Source of the DNA: a virus
Lineage: Duplodnaviria > Caudoviricetes
Virus record (IMG/VR): IMGVR_UViG_3300025707_000003
Coordinates: 141,704-205,703 of that record
Strand: one strand, 5' to 3'
DNA length: 64,000 bases
Shown here one piece after another: positions 9,541 to 29,874 of the stretch (position 1 is the stretch's first letter; each line of letters begins with the position of its first letter). Position numbers and translations under genes: made by a program. The notes beneath the pieces were generated by a model. The model did no database searches. It worked only from the letters and a program-made list of their open reading frames with translations, and was not told the DNA's origin.

Positions 9541-9571
9541 TCTCCTTTCAAGAGATTATAAATAAGGGGTT
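9541..9571 (-). promoter_or_regulatory. Promoter-RBS cassette (AACCCCTTATTTATAATCTCTTGAAAGGAGA)
   Basis: 31 nt identical to 10151-10181; directly upstream of 9167..9535. Confidence 0.75.
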
Positions 9572-9589
9572 GTTCCATAGGAGACTTAA

Positions 9590-10117
9590 CTACCCCCCAA
9601 TCCTCTTTATTGCACCTAAAACCCTATGATGCTCTTCATCACTTAACTTAAATAGATTGTCAAGCACATCACTTGAAAGACCCTCAAGCCCATAAAGAGC
9701 AATGACCTCCTCTCCTGTCATTTGCGGATTAGAAAAGCACTCTTGCTCGACTCTAACCTTAGACCATCCAAACATCTCCATACACACCTCTTTATGTGGT
9801 CTAAACACCTTAACTTTAGGTTCTACTTTAGGTTCACGCTTAAATGCTGAACCCCAACCATTAAGCTCATGTACCAAGTCGGTGTAGTTCACCTTAGCCC
9901 TCTTCAAAACATGATGATAAAAAGAAATGCTCCCCCAATCACTCATTTCAAAGAACTTCCCGTCATAAGCTCCGCTACCTACCCTCTCTTTTAACCAACC
10001 ATGTATGTGGTTAAAGGTAATATCTGGATATAGGTCTATAAAGTTAGGGTGGATCGTATACACCTTTGCATAAGGCATTATCTGATTTGCATCGTGTGAG
10101 TATCTTATCAAACTCAT
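9590..10117 (-). CDS. Hypothetical protein
   Basis: 175 aa, RBS AAAGGAG, promoter motif upstream. Confidence 0.75.
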   Translation of the reverse strand: MSLIRYSHDANQIMPYAKVYTIHPNFIDLYPDITFNHIHGWLKERVGSGAYDGKFFEMSDWGSISFYHHVLKRAKVNYTDLVHELNGWGSAFKREPKVEPKVKVFRPHKEVCMEMFGWSKVRVEQECFSNPQMTGEEVIALYGLEGLSSDVLDNLFKLSDEEHHRVLGAIKRIGG

Positions 10118-10150
10118 ATCGGTTCTCCTTTCAAGAGACTTATATTTAAG

Positions 10151-10183
10151 TCTCCTTTCAAGAGATTATAAATAAGGGGTTAC
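10151..10183 (-). promoter_or_regulatory. GTAACCCCTTAT promoter motif
   Basis: GTAACCCCTTATTTATAA followed by TCTCTTGAAAGGAGA. Confidence 0.75.
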
Positions 10184-10286
10184 AAACTCGAACCCAAAAA
10201 TCACAAACCCAAATAATATACAGAATCACTTATCCAACATCGCTTTTTCAAAAACGCTCATATATAAGACCCCCCCCTCTCTGGAC

Positions 10287-10559
10287 TTAACCTTTATACA
10301 TAATCTTGTAATCATGCTCCCCCATACGCTTGTATGACTCAATCTGCTCCGCATTCGCTTGCTCTATCTCATCCGAATCTCCCCAAAGAGTTAGCTCTTT
10401 GCCCCAATATCGCCCTAGATTCAAGTATTCAGAAGAAGTCATTTTTAATAAGTCTTCCACAGCTTCCTGTTTGGAGACTGGTAGTTCCAAGCCATGTCTC
10501 TTTATGTATTCTTCACAAGTCATTTGTCTTCCCTGTATTGGTAAAGGTGGTTGAAACAT
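10287..10559 (-). CDS. Hypothetical protein (start uncertain)
   Basis: 90-aa ORF without a strong RBS at the first ATG. Confidence 0.5.
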   Translation of the reverse strand: MFQPPLPIQGRQMTCEEYIKRHGLELPVSKQEAVEDLLKMTSSEYLNLGRYWGKELTLWGDSDEIEQANAEQIESYKRMGEHDYKIMYKG

Positions 10560-10599
10560 GGTTATAGATCAAGGGATGTCAAATTGTATGCGTTTTCAA

Positions 10600-10632
10600 T
10601 ATGGGTTTTCGGGACTCCCCCAAAAACCCATA
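10600..10632. other. Intergenic hairpin at a GC-skew switch
   Basis: TATGGGTTTT (10600-10609) pairs with AAAACCCATA (10623-10632), plus an inner GGG/CCC. Confidence 0.7.
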
Positions 10633-10695
10633 GAGTCTTTGATGGGGTTCTGAGAGAATGTTGATTAACCCTGTCTTTGAGGGACGAGAAGACCT

Positions 10696-10713
10696 TTATA
10701 TTCAAGGGGTTAC
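10696..10713 (-). promoter_or_regulatory. GTAACCCCTT promoter motif
   Basis: GTAACCCCTTGAATATAA immediately after the stop of 10713..11339. Confidence 0.6.
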
Positions 10714-11339
10714 TACTTCGCATCCGTATCTTCCTTCGGCTCGGTTTTCCCTTTTAGCTCGCTTATTTCTTTTAGGAGCTGATCACGCTCTGCTTTCAAG
10801 TGACTATTATTTTGGTAGTATGCGTTGAGGTGGTTGATCATGGTTTCTTTCGGTACGCCCTTCTTCTTGAGATGGAGGTCTTGAAGGGTAACACTCTGCC
10901 ATGTTCCGTTTGGGTTCTGACATTCAGCGAAACAAACTACAGAGACTACCTCTCCTTGCACCACTTCGCCAGTATAGGATCTGTAATAGTATATGTCTCC
11001 TGCTCGTGGTAGGTCAGAGCTTGAGAGCTTGGGGTCGGTGTGTACCTCTTTTGGATGAGGGGTCTTAGTAGGAATGTTTGGTTCGGAAATAGGCTCTTCG
11101 ACTGGTTCGGAATTATCTGGTTCCGAAGTCTCACTCCAAACGACAACATCCCCAAAAAGATCTAAGGGGTCTGCTTCGGCTGGGTTTCTAATCATGTCAC
11201 CGTCAAGAATAAAGTCTCCGTTCTTAATGCATTGGTCGAGGACCATCTTAAAACGAGCATCGCCCATTCTTTTAACGCCCAACTCCTGCTTCGCTACCTC
11301 TTTAGCCTTCTTGATCGTCAGCCCTATGAGTGCCTTCAT
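10713..11339 (-). CDS. Hypothetical protein with Pro/Glu linker
   Basis: 208 aa, RBS GGAGGG, coupled to the upstream stop. Confidence 0.75.
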   Translation of the reverse strand: MKALIGLTIKKAKEVAKQELGVKRMGDARFKMVLDQCIKNGDFILDGDMIRNPAEADPLDLFGDVVVWSETSEPDNSEPVEEPISEPNIPTKTPHPKEVHTDPKLSSSDLPRAGDIYYYRSYTGEVVQGEVVSVVCFAECQNPNGTWQSVTLQDLHLKKKGVPKETMINHLNAYYQNNSHLKAERDQLLKEISELKGKTEPKEDTDAK

Positions 11340-11773
11340 AGCTCGCCCTCCATACCATCGCCATAGTCGTCATCATCTAGGGCATAGTATTCATCCTCAT
11401 CATCGGCACTGTCAAAGTCGAGCATCTCCTCGACCATCTTCTTTAAGATCTGTGCTTTGATCGTTTGGTGGTGGGTTACCTCGACTGAGGAGATGCCATA
11501 GTGGTGTGCCATGTCCTTGACCTCCTCATAGTTCTCAAGTTCCTCTATGAATGACTTAGCCCATATCTTCGCATCGCTCTCACTTAATCTCTCACTGTGA
11601 GCTTCGGAGATAAGGTCTTGTAGGTGTCCACAGTTATTAGCGTATGTCGTCATATTACTAGTCTCTACTTTCTTGCCATTCATCATAGCTCGCCATCGTT
11701 TGTATATCCTCATTAAACTGCCTTCGCAAGAGGGAGGTCTTAGTTCGGATAGTTTGGTGATCTCCCCATCCAT
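11336..11773 (-). CDS. Hypothetical protein, acidic C-terminus (true start may be a downstream Met)
   Basis: 145-aa ORF; 5' end overlaps 11658..12032. Confidence 0.65.
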   Translation of the reverse strand: MDGEITKLSELRPPSCEGSLMRIYKRWRAMMNGKKVETSNMTTYANNCGHLQDLISEAHSERLSESDAKIWAKSFIEELENYEEVKDMAHHYGISSVEVTHHQTIKAQILKKMVEEMLDFDSADDEDEYYALDDDDYGDGMEGEL

Positions 11774-12032
11774 TTATTTGATTTGGGTCATGATCCTCAC
11801 CCCAACCTTGAGGGTTCTCTGATCGTAGGTTGATCCAAGCTCCAAGAGCTGACTCATATTGAGCCACCTCAGTGCTGAACTTACTGACCTCTGCCACCCA
11901 CTCGCTAGGGGTAGGAGGAACATCAAGATCAGCAAAGGCTCGCTCGATCTCTCTCCACTCCCCACGAAAAGGTTGGGGTAGGCTGTTTCGGATGGTGGCG
12001 TATTGTGCTCGTTGTTTTTCTATGGTCGTCAT
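11658..12032 (-). CDS. Hypothetical protein
   Basis: 124 aa, RBS AAGGAGG, promoter motif upstream. Confidence 0.75.
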   Translation of the reverse strand: MTTIEKQRAQYATIRNSLPQPFRGEWREIERAFADLDVPPTPSEWVAEVSKFSTEVAQYESALGAWINLRSENPQGWGEDHDPNQINGWGDHQTIRTKTSLLRRQFNEDIQTMASYDEWQESRD

Positions 12033-12052
12033 GTTGACCTCCTTCTACACCT

Positions 12053-12072
12053 TTATATAAATAAGGGGTTAC
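12053..12072 (-). promoter_or_regulatory. GTAACCCCTTAT promoter motif
   Basis: GTAACCCCTTATTTATATAA abutting the stop of 12072..12713. Confidence 0.75.
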
Positions 12073-12713
12073 TACTTCGTATTGCCCTTATGGTGAACGA
12101 TGCAGTCATAGTGTACCTCCACCATAGACCCTACACGCTTGATCTTCTTCACCCCTCGCTCTTCTAGCAACTCGACTCTATAGTAGTTGCGACCCCATGC
12201 TCCCCCTGCCCCGATGACCTTAGCTCGTGTGCGTTGTCCACCACCACCTGGCGTACCACTGAACACGATCTCATCACCGATCTTGATCTCACTCTTGTTG
12301 GGTCGGTTATCAGAGACCCAGTCCAACCGAACCAACTTGAGGAACCAGTTGCCAAGATGAGCATCGTTATGAGACTGGGGCTTATCGTGTCCTCTCCATG
12401 TCTGATAAGGGTAGGTTATAGAGTTTGTACAGTTGCCATATAGACTCACTGTAGACGCTCCATCCTTAGCCCATGTCAAGGTGAGGAAGAAGTCGCCAAA
12501 CCCCTCCTTTCGGAGTACGAGATCCACCTCACCCGACAACTCAATGGCAGGTTTGGGGATCACCTTAAACCCTATCTCCTCTGCTAGATCAGTGAAGAGC
12601 TTGATGTGTCGGTCATACCACGACTGCATAGACCCTTTGGTCTTGTATGCAGTCTTGTGATGAGGTGTCGGGATCATCTTGCGAACCCCATTGATCTTCT
12701 GAGTTAAGGTCAT
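12072..12713 (-). CDS. Hypothetical protein with C-terminal SH3-like beta domain
   Basis: 213 aa, RBS AAGGAG; IKIGDEIVF...RAKVIG...YRVELL. Confidence 0.7.
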   Translation of the reverse strand: MTLTQKINGVRKMIPTPHHKTAYKTKGSMQSWYDRHIKLFTDLAEEIGFKVIPKPAIELSGEVDLVLRKEGFGDFFLTLTWAKDGASTVSLYGNCTNSITYPYQTWRGHDKPQSHNDAHLGNWFLKLVRLDWVSDNRPNKSEIKIGDEIVFSGTPGGGGQRTRAKVIGAGGAWGRNYYRVELLEERGVKKIKRVGSMVEVHYDCIVHHKGNTK

Positions 12714-12735
12714 TAGCAGTCTCCTTTTATTACAG

Positions 12736-12788
12736 TACCCTATAAATAAGGGGTTACCATTAGGCTGTAACCCCTTATTTATAGGGTA
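12736..12788. promoter_or_regulatory. Divergent promoter pair forming a perfect 22-bp inverted repeat
   Basis: 12736-12757 is the exact reverse complement of 12767-12788 (GTAACCCCTTATTTATAGGGTA); 9-nt spacer. Confidence 0.85.
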
Positions 12789-12825
12789 ACATCAATCACT
12801 CTCACTCCCCCAAACGGAGAAAAAA

Positions 12826-13419
12826 ATGACTGCGACACAAACCATATTCTTTATATCAGCACTCGTGTTCGTTGGTACCAGCATCAACGCAGGTAAAAAG
12901 GCTTTTGAGGGCAGGGCTGTTTACCACAGCCAATGCTCAATCAACCCTAATCCTGTGCAGTACCAGGGTCACACTGGGACAGTGAGTGTCCGTAGGTGGT
13001 GGTATGTGGATACTGTCACATTTGCTCAGATCAAGGCTAATAAGGCACAGCATAAAATTTGTGAGAGCGTGAAGGTTCTCATGTCGAGTGAGGCTGAGGT
13101 TGCTGAAGCTGAGAGGCTTCAAGATGTCGCCAATAACTGGATCATCTTCTTCTTCGCTTGGCTTGGTCTGGGTGTCTTGATTGAGCTTGTGAGGGTTCAG
13201 ATTGGCAACAGGCGGGAGCGTCTTGACCGACTCAACGCTGAAGCAGAGCGAGATCTTGAAGCATCAGCGAGAACTGAGTTCTGGGTCTCTTATGCGACAG
13301 CTAAGGAAACTGAGCGACAGAGATCTAAGACAGCTAATGAAGAACGAGCCAGACGAAAGGCTGATAGGGGAGCGACCCTTGAAGCTAAAAGGATTGCAAA
13401 CCTAGAGCGTAAGGGATAA
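12826..13419 (+). CDS. Two-TM membrane protein with C-terminal coiled coil
   Basis: N-terminal hydrophobic segment, second TM WIIFFFAWLGLGVLI, RBS GGAG. Confidence 0.75.
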   Translation: MTATQTIFFISALVFVGTSINAGKKAFEGRAVYHSQCSINPNPVQYQGHTGTVSVRRWWYVDTVTFAQIKANKAQHKICESVKVLMSSEAEVAEAERLQDVANNWIIFFFAWLGLGVLIELVRVQIGNRRERLDRLNAEAERDLEASARTEFWVSYATAKETERQRSKTANEERARRKADRGATLEAKRIANLERKG

Positions 13420-13423
13420 CGAA

Positions 13424-14011
13424 ATGACACTAAGAGAACAAATCCAAACACGAGCCGAGATTCTAGGTCAGTTAGGTGGTCGAGGCACCCTTATGACCCA
13501 AGAAGAGTATGTACTCGATAAGGGTGCTGAGATGGCTTCTAGTGAGACTTTAACAGAGGAGCAGTACTCGTACCTCAAAATGATCACAGGAATGATTGAG
13601 TGCCTCCCTAAGCAGTGTTTCCATAATGCTCAGATGATGACCCTTGCCGACAGCTACCGAGTCCACCAGAGGGTCAAGTATCACGAGGGCTATGTGTGGA
13701 CTGGTTTTATGCCTATCCTCCATGCGTGGATCACCCTTGACGATAAGATTGTTGATGTGACTCTTAGCACTGACCCAGAGTCTACTCAACGCTTCCTTGC
13801 AGGAGATTCGCCACAGGGAGACTTGATGGACAGGGTGCTTGGAGTGATCCCAGATGAGTGGGAATATCTAGGTGTGCCTATGGAGAGTGAGTATGTAGTT
13901 TCCACGATGATGAAGAATCAGGAGTCCCGTTCACTCATCGACAATTGGCAGGACGGATGGCCTCTACTTTCTAAAGTGAGTTCCTCTTTAGATACGAATA
14001 CGAGGTCGTAA
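13424..14011 (+). CDS. Putative papain/transglutaminase-fold protein
   Basis: QCFHNA...YHEGY...HAWIT...IVDVT gives a Cys-His-Asp pattern. Confidence 0.55.
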   Translation: MTLREQIQTRAEILGQLGGRGTLMTQEEYVLDKGAEMASSETLTEEQYSYLKMITGMIECLPKQCFHNAQMMTLADSYRVHQRVKYHEGYVWTGFMPILHAWITLDDKIVDVTLSTDPESTQRFLAGDSPQGDLMDRVLGVIPDEWEYLGVPMESEYVVSTMMKNQESRSLIDNWQDGWPLLSKVSSSLDTNTRS

Positions 14012-14023
14012 CCCCTTATATAA
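14008..14023 (+). promoter_or_regulatory. GTAACCCCTTAT promoter motif
   Basis: Its TAA is the stop codon of 13424..14011. Confidence 0.75.
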
Positions 14024-14061
14024 GAGTAAATATCAATCACCCACTTCTCAACGGAGACAAC

Positions 14062-14496
14062 ATGGTAAACCTACTCTCAACAATCATCATCCTCGAAGCT
14101 TGCAAAGGCTTTGAGACTTATGACGAAACCTTTGATCGTATGATCCCGACAGCAGGTGCAGAGATCAAATCTTTGAGCTTCGATATACACCCCTCTTACT
14201 TTGAAGATGAGGACTATAACGCCATCGCACCACTCGCACTGAAGGTGGCTACATACGATGTCATCTGTGATCCGAAGGATCGAGAGGCAATCGTGGAAGC
14301 AATCGCCAAAGGCTTTGAGGGTGTGTCGGATCATGTGAAGCTTTTCAGCATCAAGATGACCTCAACCACCAAGACTTTTTGGAACGCTCGTAAGGGTAAA
14401 GCCACCACTCATAAGAGCCACCATCAACCTCAGCTTGTAATCACTTATAGCGAGGACATGAGAATCAACCTCAAGGATCGTGAAACGAACTTCTAA
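14062..14496 (+). CDS. Hypothetical protein
   Basis: 144 aa, RBS GGAG, promoter motif upstream. Confidence 0.75.
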   Translation: MVNLLSTIIILEACKGFETYDETFDRMIPTAGAEIKSLSFDIHPSYFEDEDYNAIAPLALKVATYDVICDPKDREAIVEAIAKGFEGVSDHVKLFSIKMTSTTKTFWNARKGKATTHKSHHQPQLVITYSEDMRINLKDRETNF

Positions 14497-14549
14497 GATG
14501 TCGTAGCGTTCAGTGAAGGGTCTAGGCTAGGGTTGCTCCTTTAATGCTC

Positions 14550-14831
14550 TTAGAGGGCAATCTGAGCGTCCTCTTTGACCATTACTAAACGATAGGCGAA
14601 CTTGAGCCAATCCTCTGCATTGTTCCCCCCTTGCCACATGAGGAGTTGTACCTGCTTTTCATGTTCTCCCCAGTCAACTAAGGTCTTAGCATTAAAGGTC
14701 ATCCATCGATTTCTCAAGTCTCGGTAATGACCTCTTGCTAAGTCTTCCCACATTGGAAGCCAGCTTGAGCGTGTCTCCCTTGACTTACGAAGCAACTGGA
14801 TAAGGTCGGTGGTAATCATTTCTCTAGTCAT
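14550..14831 (-). CDS. Hypothetical protein
   Basis: 93 aa, RBS AAGGA. Confidence 0.65.
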   Translation of the reverse strand: MTREMITTDLIQLLRKSRETRSSWLPMWEDLARGHYRDLRNRWMTFNAKTLVDWGEHEKQVQLLMWQGGNNAEDWLKFAYRLVMVKEDAQIAL

Positions 14832-14896
14832 TTTAGTGTCCTTGAATCATATTTAAGAGTACCTATTTATTATATGATTTGGGCTACTAAGGACTC

Positions 14897-15439
14897 TCAA
14901 TAACTGATGTCTTTATGAGCTGGACTACTCTTATTGATCTTCTTACGACAGATGGGGCCGATAGCTTGCTTTAAGCTCGAAGGGTTAGTGAGGGGGAGAG
15001 CACATCTCGCACACTTGGCTTCACACATGATCTGTAGATTATCGGGCATCTCGAAGTCTTGGTCAGTAGATACTCCTAAGAGCCAGACGAGGGTTTCGTA
15101 GCCGATGTCGAGTCGGGGCTGATTGAGGTTCAGTCCGCATTGGATTCGGAGCGTACCTCTCTCATCGACTGTCCCGATGGTCTGATACACAGGGTCATAC
15201 AAGCTGTTAAGTCCATGTAGGTTAAGGCTCACTTCAACAGGTTCATTGACGGTCTGCCCCTTTAGACGAGTCGCCTTGTAGGTGAGGTGATTGTCCTTAC
15301 GCTCGTTGCCGAAGGTGAACACCCAGGACTTGGTTCTCTTGGACGGAAGGGCGACACCGTTATGGTCATGTGTCGCCCCGAAGAAAGGGGCTGTAAGGTG
15401 AGCGAGGAACTCACTAGGTTTTATCTCGACTTGCTTCAT
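14897..15439 (-). CDS. DUF6011-like zinc-finger protein (paralog 1)
   Basis: Start MKQVEIK at 15439 with RBS AAGGAG; CARCALPLTNPSSLKQAIGPIC. Confidence 0.75.
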   Translation of the reverse strand: MKQVEIKPSEFLAHLTAPFFGATHDHNGVALPSKRTKSWVFTFGNERKDNHLTYKATRLKGQTVNEPVEVSLNLHGLNSLYDPVYQTIGTVDERGTLRIQCGLNLNQPRLDIGYETLVWLLGVSTDQDFEMPDNLQIMCEAKCARCALPLTNPSSLKQAIGPICRKKINKSSPAHKDISY

Positions 15440-16011
15440 GGGTTCTCCTTTTCGATTAGTGCTTCGACCTCTATCAGAGCCTTGTCTACCCATGAGGGGG
15501 TCTCAGTCTCGTTGTGGTCTTTCAGAATGGATAGGTTCTGGTGGAGGTTGTAAGGAAGGAAGCTATAGTGATGTAAGGCTTGTTTCCACTCTTTGACCTC
15601 CAGTGGAGGAGAGAGGTCAAGGTCGTAAGCCTGATCCTCAAGAAGATCTCTTAACTCATCCTCTCGCTCGTCCTCATCCAAGTTTGGATCAAGGGTAGCC
15701 TTAGCCACTTCCTCATCAAACCATGAGCGTTTGACATCCCAAGGGTACACTCCATCCATGAGACAACACTCGCACAGTTCTGGGTCCGCTTCGTAGTCGT
15801 CATATCCGACCTGAAACATACGCCCTATCCGACCTTCTCCGCCACACTCTTGACACTCTACAGCGTCTGCGTAGGATGAGGATTGGAGGCGAGCCTTAGC
15901 TTCTTCGAGTGAAGCCTTAGCTGACTTCAACTTTTTGAGGTCTTGTTGGATCGCCTCAGTGAGTTGCTCGGAGGTGAAGTTTAGGTCTTGAAGTGAGGGG
16001 TAGTAGCTCAT
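15436..16011 (-). CDS. Hypothetical protein with CxxC...CxxC zinc ribbon
   Basis: CQECGGEG...CECC, RBS GGAG. Confidence 0.75.
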   Translation of the reverse strand: MSYYPSLQDLNFTSEQLTEAIQQDLKKLKSAKASLEEAKARLQSSSYADAVECQECGGEGRIGRMFQVGYDDYEADPELCECCLMDGVYPWDVKRSWFDEEVAKATLDPNLDEDEREDELRDLLEDQAYDLDLSPPLEVKEWKQALHHYSFLPYNLHQNLSILKDHNETETPSWVDKALIEVEALIEKENP

Positions 16012-16073
16012 GTTGGCTTCTCCATTTGGGAGTGATGGGGTGCGTGATTATTCTGCACCCCTCTTACATAGTC

Positions 16074-16091
16074 TTATAGATAAGGGGTTAC
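16074..16091 (-). promoter_or_regulatory. GTAACCCCTTAT promoter motif
   Basis: GTAACCCCTTATCTATAA, followed by a 7-bp stem-loop at 16037-16061. Confidence 0.75.
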
Positions 16092-16833: not shown

Positions 16834-16850
16834 TATATTTAAGGGGTTAC
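16834..16850 (-). promoter_or_regulatory. GTAACCCCTT promoter motif
   Basis: GTAACCCCTTAAATATA upstream of 16778. Confidence 0.75.
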
Positions 16851-17715: not shown

Positions 17716-17731
17716 ATAGATAAGGGGTTAC
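17716..17731 (-). promoter_or_regulatory. GTAACCCCTTAT promoter motif
   Basis: Lies in the 62-bp gap between the peptidase and vWA genes. Confidence 0.75.
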
Positions 17732-18946: not shown

Positions 18947-19030
18947 ACACAATACTAATATATAAGGGGTTACGCTTCTGTTATAGGATTGCCAATAAAA
19001 ACTGTAACCCCTTATATATTAGTATTGTGT
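18947..19030. promoter_or_regulatory. Divergent promoter pair forming a perfect 27-bp inverted repeat
   Basis: 18947-18973 is the exact reverse complement of 19004-19030 (GTAACCCCTTATATATTAGTATTGTGT); 30-nt spacer. Confidence 0.85.
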
Positions 19031-19073: not shown

Positions 19074-19091
19074 GTAACCCCTTATTTATAG
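19074..19091 (+). promoter_or_regulatory. GTAACCCCTTAT promoter motif
   Basis: GTAACCCCTTATTTATAG upstream of the AAA gene. Confidence 0.75.
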
Positions 19092-20286: not shown

Positions 20287-20303
20287 GTAACCCCTTATCT
20301 ATT
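20287..20303 (+). promoter_or_regulatory. GTAACCCCTTAT promoter motif
   Basis: GTAACCCCTTATCTATT followed by a TAGGTGA/TCACTTA stem-loop. Confidence 0.75.
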
Positions 20304-21796: not shown

Positions 21797-22213
21797 ATGA
21801 ACTTCAACACACTTATGAACACAATGAACGATACTAACCTCGACATCAACCAACGAACCGAAGCGGCAAGTAAACTATGGGAAGCACAGAACAGGTTTAA
21901 CAAGTCTCTTAAAAGTTTCAAGTCAGAACTGATCGAGATGGCAGATGACCAAGATCTTATCATCGAGTCGGCATCGGGTAAATACACCACGAGGGTAGAA
22001 AAACAACCCCCCACACCTAAGTTGGAATCGGTAGACATCTGCGACATCGAGGACGCTATCAGTGAAGATCTCTTTGATCAATACATCGCTCATAGTTATA
22101 CGATCCGTTGGAGCGAGTTTAGAGAGGCTCCAGAAGAGGTGAAAGAAGCGTTCTATGCTGTACCCAACCTCGAAACGATGCAGACCTACCAAGTCAAGTT
22201 TAAGAGGTCTTAG
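21797..22213 (+). CDS. Hypothetical protein
   Basis: 138 aa, RBS AGGAG. Confidence 0.75.
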   Translation: MNFNTLMNTMNDTNLDINQRTEAASKLWEAQNRFNKSLKSFKSELIEMADDQDLIIESASGKYTTRVEKQPPTPKLESVDICDIEDAISEDLFDQYIAHSYTIRWSEFREAPEEVKEAFYAVPNLETMQTYQVKFKRS

Positions 22214-22230
22214 TAACCCCTTATTTATAA
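22213..22230 (+). promoter_or_regulatory. GTAACCCCTTAT promoter motif
   Basis: Overlaps the TAG stop of 21797..22213. Confidence 0.75.
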
Positions 22231-24519: not shown

Positions 24520-24884
24520 TGACATACCTAAGTAGAGACAGCGAGGGGCGAATGATCCCCAACCCCTCATTAATGACCAACATAGAAATGACCCAACACC
24601 TATCCCCCGCTGATTGGAAAGATGTTTTTGCGGAGATTGGGTTTGTAGACGACCAAGACCCTTATCCTAAGCATAACGCAAATTTATATCCAGACAGAGT
24701 TCACTACAAACACGACAAGGACTCCAACCTTCGCCTTAGCTTTGACAGTAGTATAAATCTGGTCACTATCTCCACAGATACCACTGAAGAAATCTATATT
24801 TACCCTGTTGATTCTAACTCTTTAAGCTATGCAATTGGACTCTTGTTAAAAACCATACGAGGTCTATATGAAACTCACTGTTGA
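24516..24884 (+). CDS. ExGF paralog family protein
   Basis: FAEIGF...KTIRGLY. Confidence 0.7.
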   Translation: MMTYLSRDSEGRMIPNPSLMTNIEMTQHLSPADWKDVFAEIGFVDDQDPYPKHNANLYPDRVHYKHDKDSNLRLSFDSSINLVTISTDTTEEIYIYPVDSNSLSYAIGLLLKTIRGLYETHC

Positions 24885-25314
24885 ACTCGTCCCTCAATCC
24901 TCATGGGGCAATAACCTACGCTCTGAAGCCAACCTCTCCAAAGCTCAATGGGATAAGCTACGCAAAGCCTCTTACAAGCAAGCAGGGTACAAATGCGAGG
25001 TCTGTGGGGGTAAAGGATCTAAGTGGCCAGTAGAGTGCCACGAGATTTGGCACTATGATGACCAGAACAAAAATCAAACTCTCAAGGGTCTGATTTCTCT
25101 CTGCCCCACCTGCCACAAAGCAAAGCACATCGGACGAACCTTATCCGTTGAACCCCCACAAGTTCAATCGCAGGTACTACATCAACTCGCTTCGATTAAT
25201 AACCTTACACCCCAAAAGACTGAGGACTACATCGTCCGAGTCTTTGAAGTATGGAACGAGAGATCCCAACATCAGTGGACGCTAGACCTCTCGTGGCTCG
25301 ATGATAACCTTTAA
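24868..25314 (+). CDS. HNH endonuclease family protein
   Basis: CEVCGG...ECHEIW...LCPTCHKAKH. Confidence 0.8.
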   Translation: MKLTVELVPQSSWGNNLRSEANLSKAQWDKLRKASYKQAGYKCEVCGGKGSKWPVECHEIWHYDDQNKNQTLKGLISLCPTCHKAKHIGRTLSVEPPQVQSQVLHQLASINNLTPQKTEDYIVRVFEVWNERSQHQWTLDLSWLDDNL

Positions 25315-25318
25315 AATC

Positions 25319-25678
25319 TTAACCACCTAGTATTTCTTCGATCTCTTTTGAAGAAAGCACAACTGGTAACCCTAAAGGATTTTTACGCTCATGTGTCCAT
25401 ACCGACCTTATGGTATCGAACAAGCTTTGGCGTGTAAAAAACATCTCGGAGTAGTTGTTTATTTCGACTATCCAGCCATGTCTTTCTTCCCCTTGCTGGA
25501 TAACCTTTAACACCCCCTCGTCTGTCTTTAAAGCGTAGATTCCAGAATCAATCGGTTCAAACCCTATCTCCAAACAAGCACCTCTAATCAAATCTTCAGC
25601 CTCTTCATCAGGTAAGAGTTTGTGATACTCCCACTCAATCTTCCCATTCACTTTGCGTGTGTATCTTTTCATAATCAA
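25319..25678 (-). CDS. ExGF...IRxVW paralog family protein
   Basis: CLEIGF...TIRSVW. Confidence 0.75.
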   Translation of the reverse strand: MIMKRYTRKVNGKIEWEYHKLLPDEEAEDLIRGACLEIGFEPIDSGIYALKTDEGVLKVIQQGEERHGWIVEINNYSEMFFTRQSLFDTIRSVWTHERKNPLGLPVVLSSKEIEEILGG

Positions 25679-25911
25679 GCACTCGCTCTAAAGAGCATGG
25701 TGTTAAGTGCTTGGATCTTACGCTCTACCCAAAGAACAGTCTTGAGGACAAAGCTCGGTTCGTCCAGCACAGTCAGAGTATTTACCATAGCCTTATAAGC
25801 CTTCGGATCAAACTCTAGGTCATCATTATTTGGGATCTTTACATGGTGTGATCCATCTCGCTCGATTATGATGATGATTGATTCTTGTAGATCTCTTTTA
25901 GTTAGACTCAT
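25675..25911 (-). CDS. Small hypothetical protein
   Basis: 78 aa, coupled to 25319..25678. Confidence 0.65.
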   Translation of the reverse strand: MSLTKRDLQESIIIIIERDGSHHVKIPNNDDLEFDPKAYKAMVNTLTVLDEPSFVLKTVLWVERKIQALNTMLFRASA

Positions 25912-26194
25912 GGATAAGTCCTTTTTCCTTTAAGGAGTTTGTAAGTTGCCCCCAAGTCATCGTTGATGTTAGGGGGAGTATGATTGTACTTGTGGTAAAG
26001 TTTAAGGTAAGCAACTTGTTCTCCAACCTCACGCTGTTAAGTGTCGGAGCGATTGTCTTTAAAAATCTCTCTAGTCGGCTTTCGCTTAACAGCGTGAGAG
26101 GAGTCTCCTTATGAGTCTTGAGGGTTGTACTTGTGGTAAAGTTTGTTGACATAGATCGCCACCCCTCCCCAAATGCTCTGTAGTGGACAGTCAA
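25898..26194 (-). CDS. Hypothetical protein (start uncertain)
   Basis: Fills the gap between minus-strand genes; 5' part overlaps 26109..27299. Confidence 0.4.
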   Translation of the reverse strand: MTVHYRAFGEGWRSMSTNFTTSTTLKTHKETPLTLLSESRLERFLKTIAPTLNSVRLENKLLTLNFTTSTIILPLTSTMTWGQLTNSLKEKGLIHESN

Positions 26195-27299
26195 GAGGCT
26201 TCATACAAGGCTCAACTAGACCACCAAAGTCATCGGTATGATCGCATTTGTGAGTACAGGAGATGAGAGCCTTGACATGAAACAGACAACCGTCCTTATG
26301 GTTCTTTTCTGTTTCAAAGAGTCTTACTGCTTTCAAGGCATACCTAGTATAGCGACCGTCAATCTGATTAAGAGCATCAAGTCGGTCTTGATCTATATCC
26401 ACAGGGATTATTACATAATCCTCTCGCTTCTTTTGGGTCAACACGATGTTTCGTGCGACCATGTCTCGGTACACCTCATAGCTACCCTTCACTTCATTTA
26501 AAGTCATCTCGATAGGGTCAAAGGAAGCACTCTTGCGAAGCTCTCTCAGATCATAGCTCGGTTGAGTGTCCTTTTCTACCTCTTGAGTCTCCATATTGCC
26601 CTCTACAGGCAGTTCGATCTCAAGGGTAGGTTCTACCACCTCTTGAACCTCAACAGGCTCTACAGGAGCAACCTCAACCTCAACCTCAACAGGCTCTTGC
26701 TCTTGCTCTGCAACAGGCTCAAGTGTAGTCGTGCTTACCTGCACACTTGAAGTGATGTACCCATCCTCTACTTTATCAAGAGAGATGCGGTAGTCCTTAG
26801 ACCCACCGACATTCTCCACCAACTCATTTGTGGTAGTGTCGATGTGGGCTTCGATGACAGCTGGGTTGTCCACCTCAACAGGGACATGAGTTTCCTCGAC
26901 CTCTTGAGTTTCCTCGACCTCAAGGGTAGGCTCGACCACAGTTTCGACCACAGGCTCAACCTTTTTAGCCTTAGCCTTCTTAGCCTTAGCCTTAGCCTTA
27001 GCCTTAGCAGGGATTGTGGTAAGGTCAAAGTCGGGGTGGTAGTACCCACGCTTATGGGTGATAAGTTCACCACTCTTTTTAAGTTCCTGTATGCAGTCAT
27101 AGACCTTGACCTGTACGACAGACCAATTGTGCTTACTCTTGGTCATGCCGAACTGATCTACGAGAACAGGATTAGCATCACAGTACAGTGTCTCTAACTG
27201 TCCTGTACTCTCGCCTGGGTTCGCCTGTACTAGAGCAGGAAGTTCAGCTCGGATACGAGTCTTGAGGTTTTCGATGTCTTGCTTTGTGTAGGTAGCCAT
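26109..27299 (-). CDS. Protein with Ala-Lys repeat and long Glu/Val/Pro/Thr acidic linker
   Basis: Start MATYTK at 27299 after AAGGAG; PAKAKAKAKAKKAKAKK; C-terminal Cys/His-rich domain. Confidence 0.8.
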   Translation of the reverse strand: MATYTKQDIENLKTRIRAELPALVQANPGESTGQLETLYCDANPVLVDQFGMTKSKHNWSVVQVKVYDCIQELKKSGELITHKRGYYHPDFDLTTIPAKAKAKAKAKKAKAKKVEPVVETVVEPTLEVEETQEVEETHVPVEVDNPAVIEAHIDTTTNELVENVGGSKDYRISLDKVEDGYITSSVQVSTTTLEPVAEQEQEPVEVEVEVAPVEPVEVQEVVEPTLEIELPVEGNMETQEVEKDTQPSYDLRELRKSASFDPIEMTLNEVKGSYEVYRDMVARNIVLTQKKREDYVIIPVDIDQDRLDALNQIDGRYTRYALKAVRLFETEKNHKDGCLFHVKALISCTHKCDHTDDFGGLVEPCMKPLDCPLQSIWGGVAIYVNKLYHKYNPQDS

Positions 27300-27337
27300 G
27301 TTGTTCTCCTTAGTGAGTGTGGGCTGATTACATAGAG

Positions 27338-27355
27338 TTATAAATAGGGGGTTAC
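27338..27355 (-). promoter_or_regulatory. GTAACCCC promoter motif variant
   Basis: GTAACCCCCTATTTATAA upstream of 27299. Confidence 0.7.
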
Positions 27356-27375
27356 AGCGAAGCACCCGATGAGGA

Positions 27376-27981
27376 CTATAGGGTAGGGTTGTCAATCCCA
27401 TTCACAGTCGCTGAAGCAGGGAGTTTGTACTGTCTCCATTTACGACTGGTGAGGTCTAACTCACGACTGATAGCGTTCTTGATTTGGACATGAAGACCAC
27501 TTTTAGTCTTTCTCGCATCTCCGTTGGGATCAGCCGAGAGAACACGCTCTCCGATGATGATTCCACGAACATGGACATCACCTGTTCCATCGTGGATAGA
27601 GACACCCTTCACACCTGCTGGATGATCGCTGTAAGCCTCAAGATGAGAGTTGTCATCGTTAGACCCTGTGGCTGACTGACGGAGTGCTGTCAGCAGACCT
27701 TTCTTGCGTGGCTGATCCCCATCGAGAGCGAGATCAAAGTCAAGATCGGTAAAGACCAACCCACGATCCTCAAGATCCACCTTGAGCTTGGCTCGATCAG
27801 CCGACTCTACCTTGACCATATCCATAGCGGCGATGGTCTTGTGGTCAGTACCCACGAGCATCGACACCTCGACAGTATGCCTCCCTCTGACAGTGCCTCC
27901 GTCTTTCTTGAGGTCAGCCTTGCCCGACTTGGTTGTAGTGAAAGTTAAAGTTGTGTTTGGTGTTGCTGTGATGTTCTGCAT
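27376..27981 (-). CDS. Hypothetical protein (paralog of 29130..29651)
   Basis: 201 aa, RBS AAAGGAG; shared VRG(I/V)I and I(K/R)N.I...L.L motifs. Confidence 0.75.
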   Translation of the reverse strand: MQNITATPNTTLTFTTTKSGKADLKKDGGTVRGRHTVEVSMLVGTDHKTIAAMDMVKVESADRAKLKVDLEDRGLVFTDLDFDLALDGDQPRKKGLLTALRQSATGSNDDNSHLEAYSDHPAGVKGVSIHDGTGDVHVRGIIIGERVLSADPNGDARKTKSGLHVQIKNAISRELDLTSRKWRQYKLPASATVNGIDNPTL

Positions 27982-28066
27982 GGGAGTCTCCTTTCAAGAG
28001 ATGTGGTTTGCAGTTTGAAATGATTATATGATTGCTGGTAAATGTTTCCTAGCCTCTCACACTAGG

Positions 28067-28084
28067 ATATATTTAAGGGGTTAC
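28067..28084 (-). promoter_or_regulatory. GTAACCCCTT promoter motif
   Basis: GTAACCCCTTAAATATAT just after the stop of 28088..28360. Confidence 0.75.
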
Positions 28085-28087
28085 AGC

Positions 28088-28360
28088 TTACGCTCCCCCG
28101 ACTCGCTCTAACAGAGATGTTTGAGCGTTCTCGATCAGCTCTGCCTTGTTCTTCGCCTCATAAGAGTGGAGGACATCGAGTTTGTTCTCACGATTGAGAG
28201 AGGCATAGTAAGCAGACACCTTAGATCGTACTGCCTTAACTGTGGGCTTTTCCTCAGCCTCTCCCATTAAGAGAGAGAAGCTGAGAGAGCTGATGATGTC
28301 GCTGATTCTGTTAGAAGCCTCTGAGTAGGTTAAAAGTGCGTTCATGTCTTTAGTCTCCAT
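28088..28360 (-). CDS. Small hypothetical protein
   Basis: 90 aa, RBS GGAG. Confidence 0.7.
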   Translation of the reverse strand: METKDMNALLTYSEASNRISDIISSLSFSLLMGEAEEKPTVKAVRSKVSAYYASLNRENKLDVLHSYEAKNKAELIENAQTSLLERVGGA

Positions 28361-28397
28361 TGGGAGTTAGGGGTGAGGATCGTTCCTCATATAATGG

Positions 28398-28473
28398 TAT
28401 AGATAAGGGGTTACGCTTCAGTCAAGTATTTGATTTACTTAGCAAAAGCGTGTAGCGTAACCCCTTCTCTATT
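28398..28473. promoter_or_regulatory. Divergent promoter pair
   Basis: Minus copy 28398-28414 and plus copy 28457-28473; AAGGGGTTACGCT / AGCGTAACCCCTT 13-bp inverted repeat. Confidence 0.75.
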
Positions 28474-28523
28474 ACCTAACATGAAGGCAATCAAGCCCCA
28501 CCACCACTCCCAAAGGAGAAAAA

Positions 28524-28913
28524 ATGAAACCACAAACAAAGACTAGACTAGACGAGATAGAGAGTACCGACCACAAACAAAGTGGCTTCCTCTCTTGCGG
28601 GGGAGATGAGTATCAGATCTCTTGTGGAGAGGCAAAATGGGAAGTGGATAACGCTCTAGCTCTAGCACAGCTCCTCATGTTAATCGAGGAGGATGAAGAA
28701 ATTCAATCATTTTCCATCTTGAGCGGAGCGAATGGCTATGACCATGTTTTTACCCGCTCCAAGTCAGGATGGCTCATACAGGATCATCATCTGGTCAATG
28801 GGGTTTGGTTTCAAGAAACCACACGCTCTCCTGTCTCAATGCCTTTTCTCATTGACTCTTATCCCGATGATTGGGATGAGTTGGATTGGTGGTGCGAAAA
28901 AGGGGAAGCGTAA
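28524..28913 (+). CDS. Hypothetical protein
   Basis: 129 aa, RBS AAAGGAG. Confidence 0.75.
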   Translation: MKPQTKTRLDEIESTDHKQSGFLSCGGDEYQISCGEAKWEVDNALALAQLLMLIEEDEEIQSFSILSGANGYDHVFTRSKSGWLIQDHHLVNGVWFQETTRSPVSMPFLIDSYPDDWDELDWWCEKGEA

Positions 28914-28927
28914 CCCCTTATCTATAA
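28910..28927 (+). promoter_or_regulatory. GTAACCCCTTAT promoter motif
   Basis: Its TAA is the stop of 28524..28913. Confidence 0.75.
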
Positions 28928-28973
28928 CTTAACATGAAGGCAATCAAGCCCAACTCTCATAAAGGAGACTTTC

Positions 28974-29117
28974 ATGAAAAACTTCCCAACAAAGCATTTG
29001 AAGAAGGTCGCTAAAGCTACTCTTGTCTCACTGAGACCAGGGCCTCGCCCCAACCCTTTTATAAAGAAAGAGGAAGAGGAAATTCCTCACAGCCTTATCA
29101 CCAAGATTATTAAATAA
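28974..29117 (+). CDS. 47-aa small protein (below track cutoff)
   Basis: MKNFPTKHLKKVAKATLVSLRPGPRPNPFIKKEEEEIPHSLITKIIK, RBS AAAGGAG, behind a promoter motif. Confidence 0.65.
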   Translation: MKNFPTKHLKKVAKATLVSLRPGPRPNPFIKKEEEEIPHSLITKIIK

Positions 29118-29129
29118 AGGAGAACCACC

Positions 29130-29651
29130 ATGACTAACCACCCAAGAGTAAAACTGTCAAGAATCAACGGAGACAACAAATACTCTGTCATCCTCGACAT
29201 GACCATCTCATACAAAGAGGTTCTTAACGAGCGTCTTAATCGCCTCAACGCTTTCGTTGCCGAGAACAGCCTTGAGAGTGCAACTCGCCTCATCAATGAG
29301 GCAGGTGTGGCCTGCACGACTAAGGATGTGGACAAGGTGATCTTTGGTAGCAAGGGTCTTATCCCTAGCACCATCGCTTCTCTTAATGGGAATAATACGA
29401 ACCGTCCTAAGAGCTACAGTGGCAAGCTCACTCGCAGAGATGGAAGCCCCCACTTCATCGACCAAAACGGAACAGAGTTTGTCCGAGGTGTCATCGTTGA
29501 TGGACACTACCCACAGAAGACTCCAACCCATCTCTTCACAGCGATCCGAAACTGCATCGAGTCTAACTTGAACCTCCCACGCTACATCCGTCATGAGATC
29601 CAAGAGCATGACGAGACTGTGGATCGTGATGAGAACAACAACCCTCAGTAA
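29130..29651 (+). CDS. Hypothetical protein (paralog of 27376..27981)
   Basis: 173 aa, RBS AAAGGAG. Confidence 0.75.
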   Translation: MTNHPRVKLSRINGDNKYSVILDMTISYKEVLNERLNRLNAFVAENSLESATRLINEAGVACTTKDVDKVIFGSKGLIPSTIASLNGNNTNRPKSYSGKLTRRDGSPHFIDQNGTEFVRGVIVDGHYPQKTPTHLFTAIRNCIESNLNLPRYIRHEIQEHDETVDRDENNNPQ

Positions 29652-29725
29652 GAGAGCCACCACATGACGCTCAAGCTCATCGTACTAATGATTATCAGAA
29701 CGGCTCTGCCTAAAGGAGAAGAACA

Positions 29726-29818
29726 ATGCTCTCAACGATCTTAGACATCGCGGGTGTAGCGAGCATCTGCCTCATCGGGATTTTCATCGTCAGCTACTAT
29801 CGCACGAAGAACCTGTAA
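29726..29818 (+). CDS. 30-aa single-TM peptide (below track cutoff)
   Basis: MLSTILDIAGVASICLIGIFIVSYYRTKNL, RBS AAAGGAG. Confidence 0.65.
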   Translation: MLSTILDIAGVASICLIGIFIVSYYRTKNL

Positions 29819-29832
29819 CCCCTTATCTATAA
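29815..29832 (+). promoter_or_regulatory. GTAACCCCTTAT promoter motif
   Basis: Its TAA is the stop of 29726..29818; followed by the GAGGAACGATCCTC hairpin. Confidence 0.75.
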
Positions 29833-29874
29833 CCATACATGAGGAACGATCCTCAACTCTTTAAAGGAGAAACA

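Follow-up and report, generated by a model that had tools for sequence, protein, structure and literature searches.

The 17-nt motif that recurs in the 64-kb stretch of phage DNA analysed here (the window) is most likely a promoter, specific to one phage group, that serves a single class of its genes. We put at roughly 80% the probability that this motif, class A, forms the core of a promoter class, one of three or more in a clade of uncultured marine huge phages (~375 kb), with crossovers inside it occurring as a by-product. Gene cassettes are also inverted, lost, and gained among relatives at the motif, which acts as a brief stretch of homology.

Occurrence and placement of the class A motif

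With up to two mismatches allowed, the pattern yGTAACCCCTTATYTATA occurs 22 times in the window (0.06 expected), and GTAACCCCTTATYTAT occurs in 13 exact copies (0.00 expected), the expected counts being derived from dinucleotide-preserving shuffles of the window. A reversed-pattern control gave 0 matches in every relative. Twenty of the 22 copies lie at 9558-29830 (the block) and the remaining two at 49803 and 51380, both of which were already included in the 21 copies of a preliminary description; a decayed copy with three mismatches (10698-10713) is additional to the 22. As that description had stated, the copies are oriented with the genes: all 22 face a start codon on the same strand, located 22-112 nt downstream and preceded by a Shine-Dalgarno (SD) sequence. 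The element is contiguous and 17-18 nt long, positions upstream of the 17-mer carrying <0.2 bit and a downstream box (bases 24-28) only 0.4-0.6 bit. Base 17, which lay outside the search pattern, is identical in 86% of comparisons between orthologous sites versus 40-55% in the flanks.

Several copies overlap the end of the preceding gene. The internal TAA of the motif is the stop codon of genes 13424-14011 and 28524-28913, as had been proposed, whereas in the third proposed case (29818) it terminates only a doubtful 30-codon ORF. The reported abutment to an upstream stop at 10713, 12072, and 22213 is correct, since the stop there is a TAG whose G is motif base 1. Three divergent gene junctions in the block carry class A on each side (12742/12767, 18958/19004, and 28399/28457), which counts toward a promoter role because promoters must exist there. 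Neither sigma70-type promoters (21 found, 26.9 +/- 5.1 expected) nor intrinsic terminators (15 found, 16.4 +/- 4.5 expected) exceed chance in the block, and the former result agrees with the earlier suggestion that class A behaves as a non-sigma70 promoter heading units of promoter, leader hairpin, ribosome-binding site (RBS), and gene. The sites in the window are as follows (G008, G002, and G001 are relatives).

9558..9573, minus strand: class A variant ACAACCCCTTATTTAT; 22-nt leader with RBS hairpin; gene 9167-9535 (122 aa)
10168..10183, minus strand: class A, exact; 50-nt leader with two copies of TCTCTTGAAAGGAGA; gene 9590-10117 (175 aa)
10698..10713, minus strand: decayed class A GTAACCCCTTGAATAT, 3 mismatches; abuts stop of gene 10713-11339; orthologous site in G008 canonical
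12057..12072, minus strand: class A; 24-nt leader; gene 11658-12032 (124 aa); G1 completes upstream TAG stop
12742..12757, minus strand: class A, left arm of divergent pair; gene 12072-12713 (213 aa); 22-bp perfect inverted repeat with 12767-12788
12767..12782, plus strand: class A, right arm of divergent pair; left end of 3.3-kb inversion; gene 12826-13419 (197 aa)
12767..16091, no strand: inverted segment; orientation opposite to G008, G002, and G001; each end within inverted motif copies
14008..14023, plus strand: class A variant, 2 mismatches; TAA is stop of gene 13424-14011; heads gene 14062-14496 (144 aa)
16076..16091, minus strand: class A, right end of inversion; 64-nt leader with 7-bp GC hairpin; gene 15436-16011 (191 aa)
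16835..16850, minus strand: class A variant, 2 mismatches; 56-nt leader; gene 16254-16778 (174 aa, DUF6011 C-terminus)
17716..17731, minus strand: class A; 28-nt leader; gene 16872-17687 (271 aa; weak VWA match below the Pfam cut-off)
18958..18973, minus strand: class A, 1 mismatch; divergent pair with 19004; gene 17750-18913 (387 aa)
19004..19019, plus strand: class A, 1 mismatch; first of two tandem putative promoters, then GGGGGG-AACAAT-CCCCC hairpin
19074..19089, plus strand: class A; 42-nt leader; gene 19132-20268 (378 aa, AAA_5 / CobS-like)
20287..20302, plus strand: class A; 52-nt leader; gene 20355-21119 (254 aa); adjoining downstream sequence replaced in G008
22213..22228, plus strand: class A; 25-nt leader; gene 22254-22988 (244 aa); G1 completes upstream TAG stop
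27340..27355, minus strand: class A, 1 mismatch; 40-nt leader; gene 26109-27299 (396 aa)
28069..28084, minus strand: class A variant GTAACCCCTTAAATAT, same in G008; 87-nt leader including class C box 28024-28031; gene 27376-27981 (201 aa)
28399..28414, minus strand: class A; divergent pair with 28457; leader hairpin GAGGAACGATCCTC; gene 28088-28345 (85 aa)
28457..28472, plus strand: class A, 1 mismatch; 22 nt of leader common to the 28910 leader; gene 28524-28913 (129 aa)
28910..28925, plus strand: class A; TAA is stop of gene 28524-28913; heads gene 28974-29117 (47 aa)
29815..29830, plus strand: class A; leader hairpin GAGGAACGATCCTC; gene 29875-30102 (75 aa)
49803..49818, plus strand: class A outside the block, 1 mismatch; 22-nt leader; gene 49841-50128 (95 aa)
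51380..51395, plus strand: class A outside the block; 54-nt leader; gene 51450-51941 (163 aa)

Leaders and ribosome-binding sites

The three identical leader blocks (31, 22, and 25 nt) said to precede unrelated genes were all recovered. They are common to 9558/10168 (17 nt after the motif, 31 nt including motif bases), 28457/28910 (22 nt), and 16835/51380 (25 nt, RBS hairpin through ATGAA), and a hairpin block of 17 nt is common to 28399/29815. At least 12 nt are shared by 12 of 253 leader pairs versus 0 of 759 shuffled pairs. Enrichment of leader hairpins is confined to the downstream side of the motif (35-40% of sites versus 10% in shuffles); in ~40% of class A sites they are GC-rich and located at +16 to +55, and no T-runs follow them. 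The leader hairpin of site 16076..16091 shows one compensatory pair among four orthologues. An RBS hairpin of the form YTCY-N3-8-GGAG is found at 62% of class A genes versus 0-5% of other genes, and no predicted structure was found in the motif itself. In the shortest leaders the RBS hairpin begins as early as base 20, which favours a transcription start at bases 17-19; a start near base 25 would fit the overlap with the class C box and the T24-R25-T26 preference.

Motif classes in a complete relative

The complete 375-kb relative G001 contains 67 class A copies, half of them in the syntenic block; 57 of the 67 have a same-strand start codon 23-88 nt downstream and only 3 are inside called genes. 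Its genes are partitioned by three upstream motif classes: class A precedes small genes whose function was not recognised, class B precedes virion genes and leader-tag genes, and class C precedes the genes for DNA polymerase, helicases, UvsX, and SbcCD as well as tRNAs. In a base-for-base alignment (TAA-[CCCC|TAGT]-TT.TYTATA), classes A and B have one common 17-nt layout and differ mainly in the 4-nt core (CCCC versus TAGT). Hybrids of the form GTAACCCCTTA(A/T)TCATATAA satisfy the class A and class C consensus simultaneously, in line with the earlier proposal that an upstream element is fused to a TATA-like box. The strict class patterns account for only 52 of the 120 divergent-junction sides in G001, which counts against the promoter reading. 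The closest database relative is an uncultured 485-kb phage (45-51% amino-acid identity), and 20 DNA runs, spanning at least 13 studies, contain the window stretch; some of these runs may come from the source sample itself. No RNA run covered the region.

A concerted base switch and candidate readers

In the sister lineage G008, A3 is replaced by G at 18 of 20 matched class A site pairs (16-18 when distinct sites are counted), so that G008 carries GTGACCCC at 16-18 of 20 orthologous class A sites, and class B is unchanged there. Because class A has switched at nearly all G008 sites with class B constant, a co-evolving and probably phage-encoded reader is suggested; the concerted change could alternatively stem from gene conversion among motif copies. 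No match to T7-like polymerases (PF00940) was obtained in G001 or G002, the best hit of T7 gene 1 against the six-frame ORFs of G001 (phmmer --max) had an E-value of 0.21 in a run that matched podovirus polymerases at 1e-67, and a motif B/C scan for a T7-like polymerase was negative. Neither multisubunit polymerase domains nor sigma region 2 were found in G001. Candidate readers include a clade-conserved 188-aa protein of the relatives with a sigma region-4 fold, adjoining a KOW/NusG-like gene, a 205-aa protein with four Myb/HTH repeats, encoded behind a class C box, and, in G002, a 249-aa protein with five HTH repeats encoded inside the block. A bolder reading, which we hold to be possible and rather doubtful, is that a cosmopolitan clade of marine huge phages without recognisable RNA polymerase or sigma region 2 bases its gene programme on a 17-nt promoter family of one layout with a swappable 4-nt core, read by an undescribed polymerase or by sigma region-4 / Myb-like HTH adaptors of the phage; the specificity would have shifted between sister lineages from A3 to G at nearly all sites simultaneously.

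Gene content and recombination

Comparison among relatives shows that the gene content between motif copies varies: all four lineages share 22 of the block's 66 protein clusters, and 23 are confined to a single lineage. The description of the block as accessory is thus apt as far as variability is concerned, but one third of its clusters are present in all four lineages and conserved genes also carry the class A motif. Both ends of the 3.3-kb inversion 12767..16091 fall inside inverted motif copies, and at the putative promoter at 16091 the upstream flank matches the flank of the G002 gene-8 promoter while the leader matches gene-13 leaders. Among the chimeric sites between G002 and G001 are the tandem deletion of one unit, a divergent pair whose spacer has been flipped, and the inversion of a single gene. 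Breakpoints at the motif, which had been predicted, therefore exist for at least one rearrangement in the window and several in relatives, but others lie elsewhere, such as that of inversion 25299-29652, which ends off-motif at the 3' end of an HNH gene. Since class B sites are chimeric at about the same rate as class A sites, shuffling appears to be a general by-product of repeated promoters in this phage and not special to class A. Most cassette differences are no proof of motif mediation because breakpoints naturally fall at transcription-unit boundaries.

Relation to known promoter systems

The promoter-early stem-loop (PeSL) cassettes of T4-type phages (Arbiol et al. 2010, PMC2839356; Comeau et al. 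2014, PMC4122927) are defined by a strong sigma70-like early promoter (-35/-10 boxes and an upstream AT-rich tract) and a stem-loop within or adjoining the promoter with a terminator or attenuator role (PMC2839356). Like them, class A units recur in a plastic region as successions of stop codon, promoter, stem-loop, SD, and ATG before small genes of unknown function, each unit delimited by the stop codon upstream of it and by SD plus ATG. Relatives differ by insertion, deletion, or replacement of units, crossovers (not all breakpoints) fall inside the repeated regulatory sequence, and the phage encodes its own recombination proteins. However, class A has no sigma70-like -35/-10 pair, its hairpin is situated downstream in the leader (+16 to +55) without T-runs, nothing points to a terminator function, terminator-like sites in the block being no more frequent than chance predicts, and none of the markers found identifies the phage as T4-like. 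The proposed analogy thus holds for the way the cassettes work and does not extend to membership: class A cassettes are PeSL-like, with a promoter that is not sigma70, no apparent terminator, and the hairpin in the leader.

Phages T7, T3, SP6, and K11 have promoters for phage-encoded single-subunit RNA polymerases, elements of ~17-23 bp that reach up to the start. The RBS hairpin position would allow a class A start at bases 17-19. Class A resembles these promoters in being contiguous (17-18 nt), high in information content, free of a -35 element, and ending in CTATA, as well as in its lineage-specific base changes across all copies and in the short specificity core that distinguishes two classes (A/B). 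T7 late leaders consist of a hairpin followed by a strong SD, as do class A leaders. Against this stand the failure of the Pfam, phmmer, and motif B/C searches to find a T7-like polymerase in G001 and the sequence directly after the motif, which, as the presumed initially transcribed sequence, is not G-rich.

T4 middle promoters combine a MotA box with a -10 element and depend on sigma appropriation by MotA/AsiA, and phage sigma-like factors such as T4 gp55 (TATAAATA) and phiEco32 gp36 use single-element promoters. A phage factor redirecting the host polymerase to a phage-only element with a TATA-like box would be comparable, as would temporal promoter classes, and the relatives encode candidate sigma region-4-like and HTH proteins. 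Unlike T4 middle promoters, class A is contiguous, with its element nearer the TATA box than is the MotA box, and unlike in the sigma-factor systems, sigma region 2 was not found. The layout GTAACC-N17-TGTM resembles that of ECF-type two-box promoters. These have an AAC-containing -35, a low-information spacer of 16-17 nt, and a short -10 (CGT/TGT). In class A, GTAACC and a weak T24-G25-T26 box are present, yet 18 nt separate the C of GTAAC from T24, this spacer is the most conserved part (1.3-2.0 bit per base), and no sigma region 2 was found; these points speak against an ECF-type promoter.

Alternative explanations

The 17-mer could be the operator of a phage repressor or activator adjoining an unrecognised weak promoter, marking a regulon and not a polymerase element. 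The relatives' several multi-HTH proteins (188, 205, and 249 aa) and the modular upstream element suggested by the class C box hybrids are compatible with an operator, and the concerted base switch fits any co-evolving DNA-binding protein. We nevertheless consider it unlikely, as no second conserved promoter element stands beside the motif at the information contents given above, sigma70-like sites are not above chance, the minimal distance between motif and RBS is near-fixed, and class B, with the same layout, heads virion genes as expected of promoter classes.

A role in RNA, as a processing site or translational operator at cistron 5' ends in polycistronic transcripts, is very improbable. 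Read-through transcripts would include the motif wherever a copy overlaps the upstream stop codon, as several do, and the units have class-specific RBS hairpins; but divergent junctions, where an upstream transcript is absent, have copies on both sides, the motif has no predicted structure, the layout is common to class B at operon heads, and crossovers within the motif take place at the DNA level. Slightly less probable still is a dedicated integron- or invertase-like site at which a site-specific recombinase moves cassettes. The inversion and unit-deletion junctions inside the motif and the variable cassette content would be expected of such a site, whereas a recombinase or integrase domain was absent from the ~30 block proteins scanned, orientation and distance follow the RBS and not the cassette ends, conserved genes bear the motif too, class B promoters are equally chimeric, and some breakpoints are elsewhere (HNH gene).

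Proposed mechanism

In our preferred reading, class A would head short transcription units, mostly of small genes without recognised function. A typical unit would consist of an upstream stop codon, the 17-nt promoter, in ~40% of sites the hairpin at +16 to +55, an A/C-rich leader, the class-specific RBS hairpin, and ATG. The promoter would be read by a factor specific to the lineage and probably encoded by the phage, be it a polymerase that escaped recognition or a DNA-binding adaptor that redirects the host polymerase, and the motif classes may represent timing classes. With dozens of copies of these 17 nt present in both orientations, often next to similar leaders, the phage recombination system (UvsX- and SbcCD-like proteins are encoded) may occasionally cross over inside class A 17-mers. 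Inversions, deletions or duplications of units, and cassette gain or loss between relatives would result, as a by-product common to class B promoters that requires no dedicated mobility device.

Implications

The clade is widespread in seawater metagenomes, and we know of neither a cultured relative nor a described transcription machinery for it. Sharply defined promoter classes would allow several hundred genes of unknown function to be sorted into expression classes from sequence only. The single-base switch in G008 offers a handle for the search for the reader, through co-variation or through the binding of GTAACCCC versus GTGACCCC probes. Finally, the recombination evidence extends gene exchange through repeated regulatory cassettes, an idea from T4-type coliphages, to an unrelated clade of huge phages that uses a different kind of promoter.

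A repeated element with the features of a promoter

In the window, the class A string GTAACCCCTTATYTAT is present in 13 exact copies and in 22 copies with at most two mismatches, whereas dinucleotide-preserving shuffles give expected numbers of 0.00 and 0.06, respectively. The repeated motif reported in the preliminary description is thus confirmed. Twenty of the class A copies lie within 9558-29830 and a further two at 49803 and 51380, and a decayed copy with three mismatches is found at 10698-10713. Every copy with at most two mismatches has a same-strand start codon with a Shine-Dalgarno (SD) sequence 22-112 nt downstream. The overlaps of the motif with stop codons and the identical leader blocks, both claimed earlier, are also real; stretches of at least 12 nt are common to 12 of 253 leader pairs but to none of 759 shuffled pairs.

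Class A stands on both sides of three divergent junctions in the window's block, where neither sigma70-type promoters (21 vs 26.9 +/- 5.1) nor intrinsic terminators (15 vs 16.4 +/- 4.5) exceed chance. Together with the orientation and spacing of the copies, these observations make promoter function the natural reading of class A, which we consider very likely (about 0.8) from the sequence. Metatranscriptome contigs of the source study (three sets) yielded nothing beyond low-complexity fragments and a single contig of 198 nt. The class A block (10001-30000) has a G+C content of 43-48% in most 2-kb bins (41.9% in one bin), compared with about 38-46%, mostly 40-43%, elsewhere, and its leaders are A/C-rich and G-poor.

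Three motif classes in a complete relative

G001, a complete relative of 375 kb, carries 67 class A copies, 31 of which fall within the 330-370 kb block that matches 9.5-30 kb of the window. A same-strand start follows 57 of the copies at 23-88 nt, and three copies lie inside called genes. A logo of 183 distinct instances lengthens the element to yGTAACCCCTTATYTATA; upstream of it there is no conservation, and downstream a weak T21..T24-R25-T26.A28 box is followed by purines. At orthologous sites, identity reaches 86% at base 17 (which lies outside the search pattern), compared with 40-55% in the flanks. When motif families were derived from k-mer enrichment upstream of G001 genes, the following classes were obtained.

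Motif classes upstream of genes in G001
Class A: yGTAACCCCTTATYTATA; 67 copies; small proteins of unknown function (median 136 aa), and additionally an AAA_5 (CobS-like) gene and an adjoining gene with a weak VWA match
Class B: tTtaTAGTtTnTTTATa; 61 copies; virion and leader-tag genes
Class C: TCATATAA; 55 copies; DNA polymerase, helicases, UvsX-like recombinase, SbcC/SbcD-like nuclease, homing endonuclease, tRNAs
Window positions of class C boxes (TCATATAA): 2160, 6751, 14870-14877, 21093, 24061, 28024-28031, 49053, 49368, 51332

Classes A and B share one register, TAA-[CCCC or TAGT]-TT.TYTATA, and six G001 sites match the consensus of both class A and class C (GTAACCCCTTA(A/T)TCATATAA). Class C has almost no -35 signal, the mean best match to TTGACA being 2.9 vs 2.5 at random positions.

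Hairpins and the transcription start

Enrichment of hairpins is confined to the downstream side of the motif. In 30-nt windows that begin at 16-26 nt of the element and span positions 16-55, structures of -6 kcal/mol or lower occur in 35-40% of sites vs about 10% in shuffles, and in the gene-13 leader hairpin (four orthologues) one pair is kept by a G-C to A-U double change. Moreover, YTCY-N3-8-GGAG surrounds the SD sequence in 62% of class A genes, as opposed to 0/51 class B genes, 1/34 class C genes, and 16/305 others. This ribosome-binding-site (RBS) hairpin, typically CACTCCCAAAGGAGAAC or TCTCTTGAAAGGAGA, is exemplified at 9536-9557, 16779-16834, and 51396-51449, occurs genome-wide in G001, and may act as a translational operator or as a mask for read-through transcripts. 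Because of the leader hairpins and the class-specific RBS hairpin, the class A unit extends beyond the 17-nt motif and is composite, with a length of 40-90 nt. The leader of the promoter at 10168-10183 (10118-10167) contains two TCTCTTGAAAGGAGA copies, the first of which has no gene behind it, an arrangement resembling the remnant of a cassette that has been lost.

Two readings of the transcription start remain. Transcription may begin at bases 17-19, with the element abutting the start as in T7-type promoters; base 20 is the earliest position at which the RBS hairpin starts, and eight or more different short leaders have it there, which places the transcription start at bases 17-19 if the 5' arm of the hairpin belongs to the RNA. 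Alternatively, the element may contain a TATA-like -10 box with a start near base 25, which the class C box overlapping bases 13-20 and the preference for T24-R25-T26 would fit; short-leader transcripts would then be devoid of the 5' arm. Conservation is highest in what would be the spacer of an ECF-like layout of two boxes (GTAACC, spacer, TGTM), which makes that layout less likely.

A concerted base switch

In G008, a closer relative of 56.6 kb with 85-90% nucleotide identity, GTGACCCC stands in place of GTAACCCC. When sites of the window and G008 were matched by their flanks, A3 was changed to G in 18 of 20 pairs, corresponding to 16-18 distinct events because two G008 sites were used twice. 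Other contigs of the G008 lineage contain the G form only, and about 150 sites of the window, G001, and the further relative G002 have A at base 3. Class B is unchanged in G008. In T7-group phages, a parallel change at nearly all copies is seen where a promoter co-evolves with its own reader. The A3-to-G switch at nearly all copies would fit such a promoter, by analogy, while gene conversion among the copies could provide another explanation. With either process, the concerted switch makes an unmodified host factor unlikely as the class A reader.

Search for the reader

Searches of G001 and G002 with PF00940, PF00562, PF00623, and PF04542 (single-subunit and multisubunit polymerases, sigma region 2) were all negative. 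Phmmer with T7 gene 1 gave nothing in G001 and retrieved podovirus polymerases at 1e-67 in the same run. Catalytic-motif scans (D.DGD, Rx3Kx6-8YG) returned chance matches or DNA polymerase only, and PHROGs/Pfam searches of 18 large G001 proteins identified terminase, RNR, helicases, and DNA polymerase, with no RNA polymerase. Scans of large proteins likewise revealed no RNA polymerase; a 1462-aa window protein with a DMDGD motif is, by feature search, similar to baseplate-hub families.

Two small marine podovirus contigs carry the exact 16-mer within a polymerase gene:
L037:826-841 and L042:1338-1353: exact 16-mer within the reading frame of a T7-like RNA polymerase (RGNPLSIQGE), then CAGGGAGAA

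As the motif lies inside the coding sequence and neither contig has other copies, the match is judged a coincidence, and these contigs were discarded as a link to the motif. A host regulon was likewise rejected, the 17-mer being single-copy in scattered bacterial genomes. The exception is a 3.2-Mb metagenome-assembled genome ('bacterium isolate AUK107', G013; L173, L180, about 40 contigs), where the 17-mer forms part of an approximately 200-bp dispersed repeat with at least 49 copies of GTAA(C/A/T)CCCTTATTTAT. The ends of this repeat resemble inverted repeats, and it looks MITE-like and not related to the phage.

Region-4 models match several proteins of the relatives, and the 188-, 205-, 143-, and 249-aa proteins are only candidates for the reader.

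DNA-binding proteins considered
L148:1195-2287 (G001, about 42.3-43.4 kb): clade-conserved gene pair, KOW/NusG-like 174-aa protein and adjoining 188-aa protein
188-aa protein: clade-conserved, two sigma-4-like helix-turn-helix (HTH) modules; Sigma70_r4 26 bits, above cut-off
L142:1483-2100 and L141:1357-1788 (both G001), L150:883-1632 (G002): proteins with 3-5 tandem HTH/Myb-like repeats
205-aa protein: four Myb/HTH repeats, preceded by a class C box
143-aa HTH protein: region-4 model match
L150:883-1632 (G002): 249-aa protein with five HTH repeats, within the syntenic block, in the place of window gene 24516-24884

The predicted structure of the 188-aa protein (pLDDT 83) best matches -35-binding domains of ECF sigma factors, with weak E-values. 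Its recognition helices are invariant among the 20 aligned homologues, and the protein therefore offers no clue to the A3-to-G switch. Its gene contains two class-B-like motifs. For the 205-aa protein, nothing was found in the fragments of the GTGA (GTGACCCC, G008) lineage. Overall, class A looks most like promoters of phage-encoded polymerases, although no such enzyme is detectable.

Cassette shuffling among lineages

Mapping of gene order in the four lineages (window, G001, G002, G008) revealed a conserved backbone on which many cassettes differ. All four share 22 of the 66 protein clusters, and 23 clusters are confined to a single lineage. From gene 7 to gene 13, for instance, G008 has no promoter-gene unit, G002 has two, and G001 has three. 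The segment 12767..16091 is inverted in the window relative to all three relatives. The promoter at 16091 is chimeric: upstream, its flank corresponds to that of the G002 gene-8 promoter, and its leader is that of gene-13 promoters. The promoter at 12767 shares its divergent-pair flank with the gene-13 promoter of G008. The crossover is thus placed within the motif, give or take a few bases. Chimeric cases between G002 and G001 comprise a one-unit deletion between tandem copies, a 53-bp spacer flipped between the arms of a divergent pair, and a single-gene inversion. A second inversion (window 25299-29652 vs G008) does not end at the motif: one junction is exactly the 3' end of an HNH endonuclease gene (24868-25314), and the other lies just past gene 29130-29651. 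Several replacements also have one end without a motif.

Flank-matching found 4 chimeric and 14 one-flank-only cases among 43 class A sites, and 3 and 13, respectively, among 38 class B sites; class C gave none that were chimeric. Since the statistic is similar for A and B, no class-A-specific recombination is claimed. The expectation that gene content among relatives shifts with breakpoints at the motif thus holds in part: recombination in the motif is shown in a handful of events, other breakpoints lie elsewhere, and the process is not special to class A. We conclude that repeated promoters and leaders serve as short homologies for the phage recombination system, which includes UvsX- and SbcCD-like proteins, and that they are no device dedicated to mobility. 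One family of proteins of about 175-190 aa is present in multiple copies (window 14897-15439, 15436-16011, and 16254-16778; several in G001 and G002); it varies by lineage in the cassettes and locations of its copies, and at least two members (the first and the third of those in the window) have a DUF6011 C-terminus.

The phage and its relation to known systems

Motif-bearing IMG/VR contigs measure 30-375 kb. The window is syntenic with 300.6-373.2 kb of G001 (375,691 bp, 100% complete by CheckV) at about 70-83% nucleotide identity. The nearest phage-collection record is an uncultured 485-kb phage with 45-51% amino-acid identity; this distant relative (LR745208.1) is without the motif, its match count being equal to the reversed control. 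INPHARED contains no near-identical phage record and gave no tblastn match to the CobS-like protein. The stretch is present in 20 DNA runs of marine origin, which belong to at least 13 studies and may in part represent the source sample; no RNA runs containing it are listed. Given the complete relative, the uncultured closest record, and the marine runs, the phage is an uncultured, widespread marine huge phage. No tRNA genes or Rfam families were found within the window. A 3039-aa protein rich in G/S/V/T (32244-41363), without a Pfam or PHROG match, is encoded by a gene with extreme GC skew (0.47 at 32-34 kb).

The motif string was encountered in the literature only in papers unrelated by title to phages, and no paper on the motif was found. 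Functionally, the class A cassettes are closest to the promoter-early stem-loop (PeSL) cassettes of T4-type phages, whose defining feature is a sigma70 promoter (PMC2839356, PMC4122927). That feature is absent here and no terminator role is apparent, so the analogy drawn in the preliminary description extends to how the cassettes work, but they are not PeSL cassettes. Phage-specific promoter classes and the shuffling of regulatory cassettes are known kinds of organization, with putative examples found here in a clade without a described transcription system.
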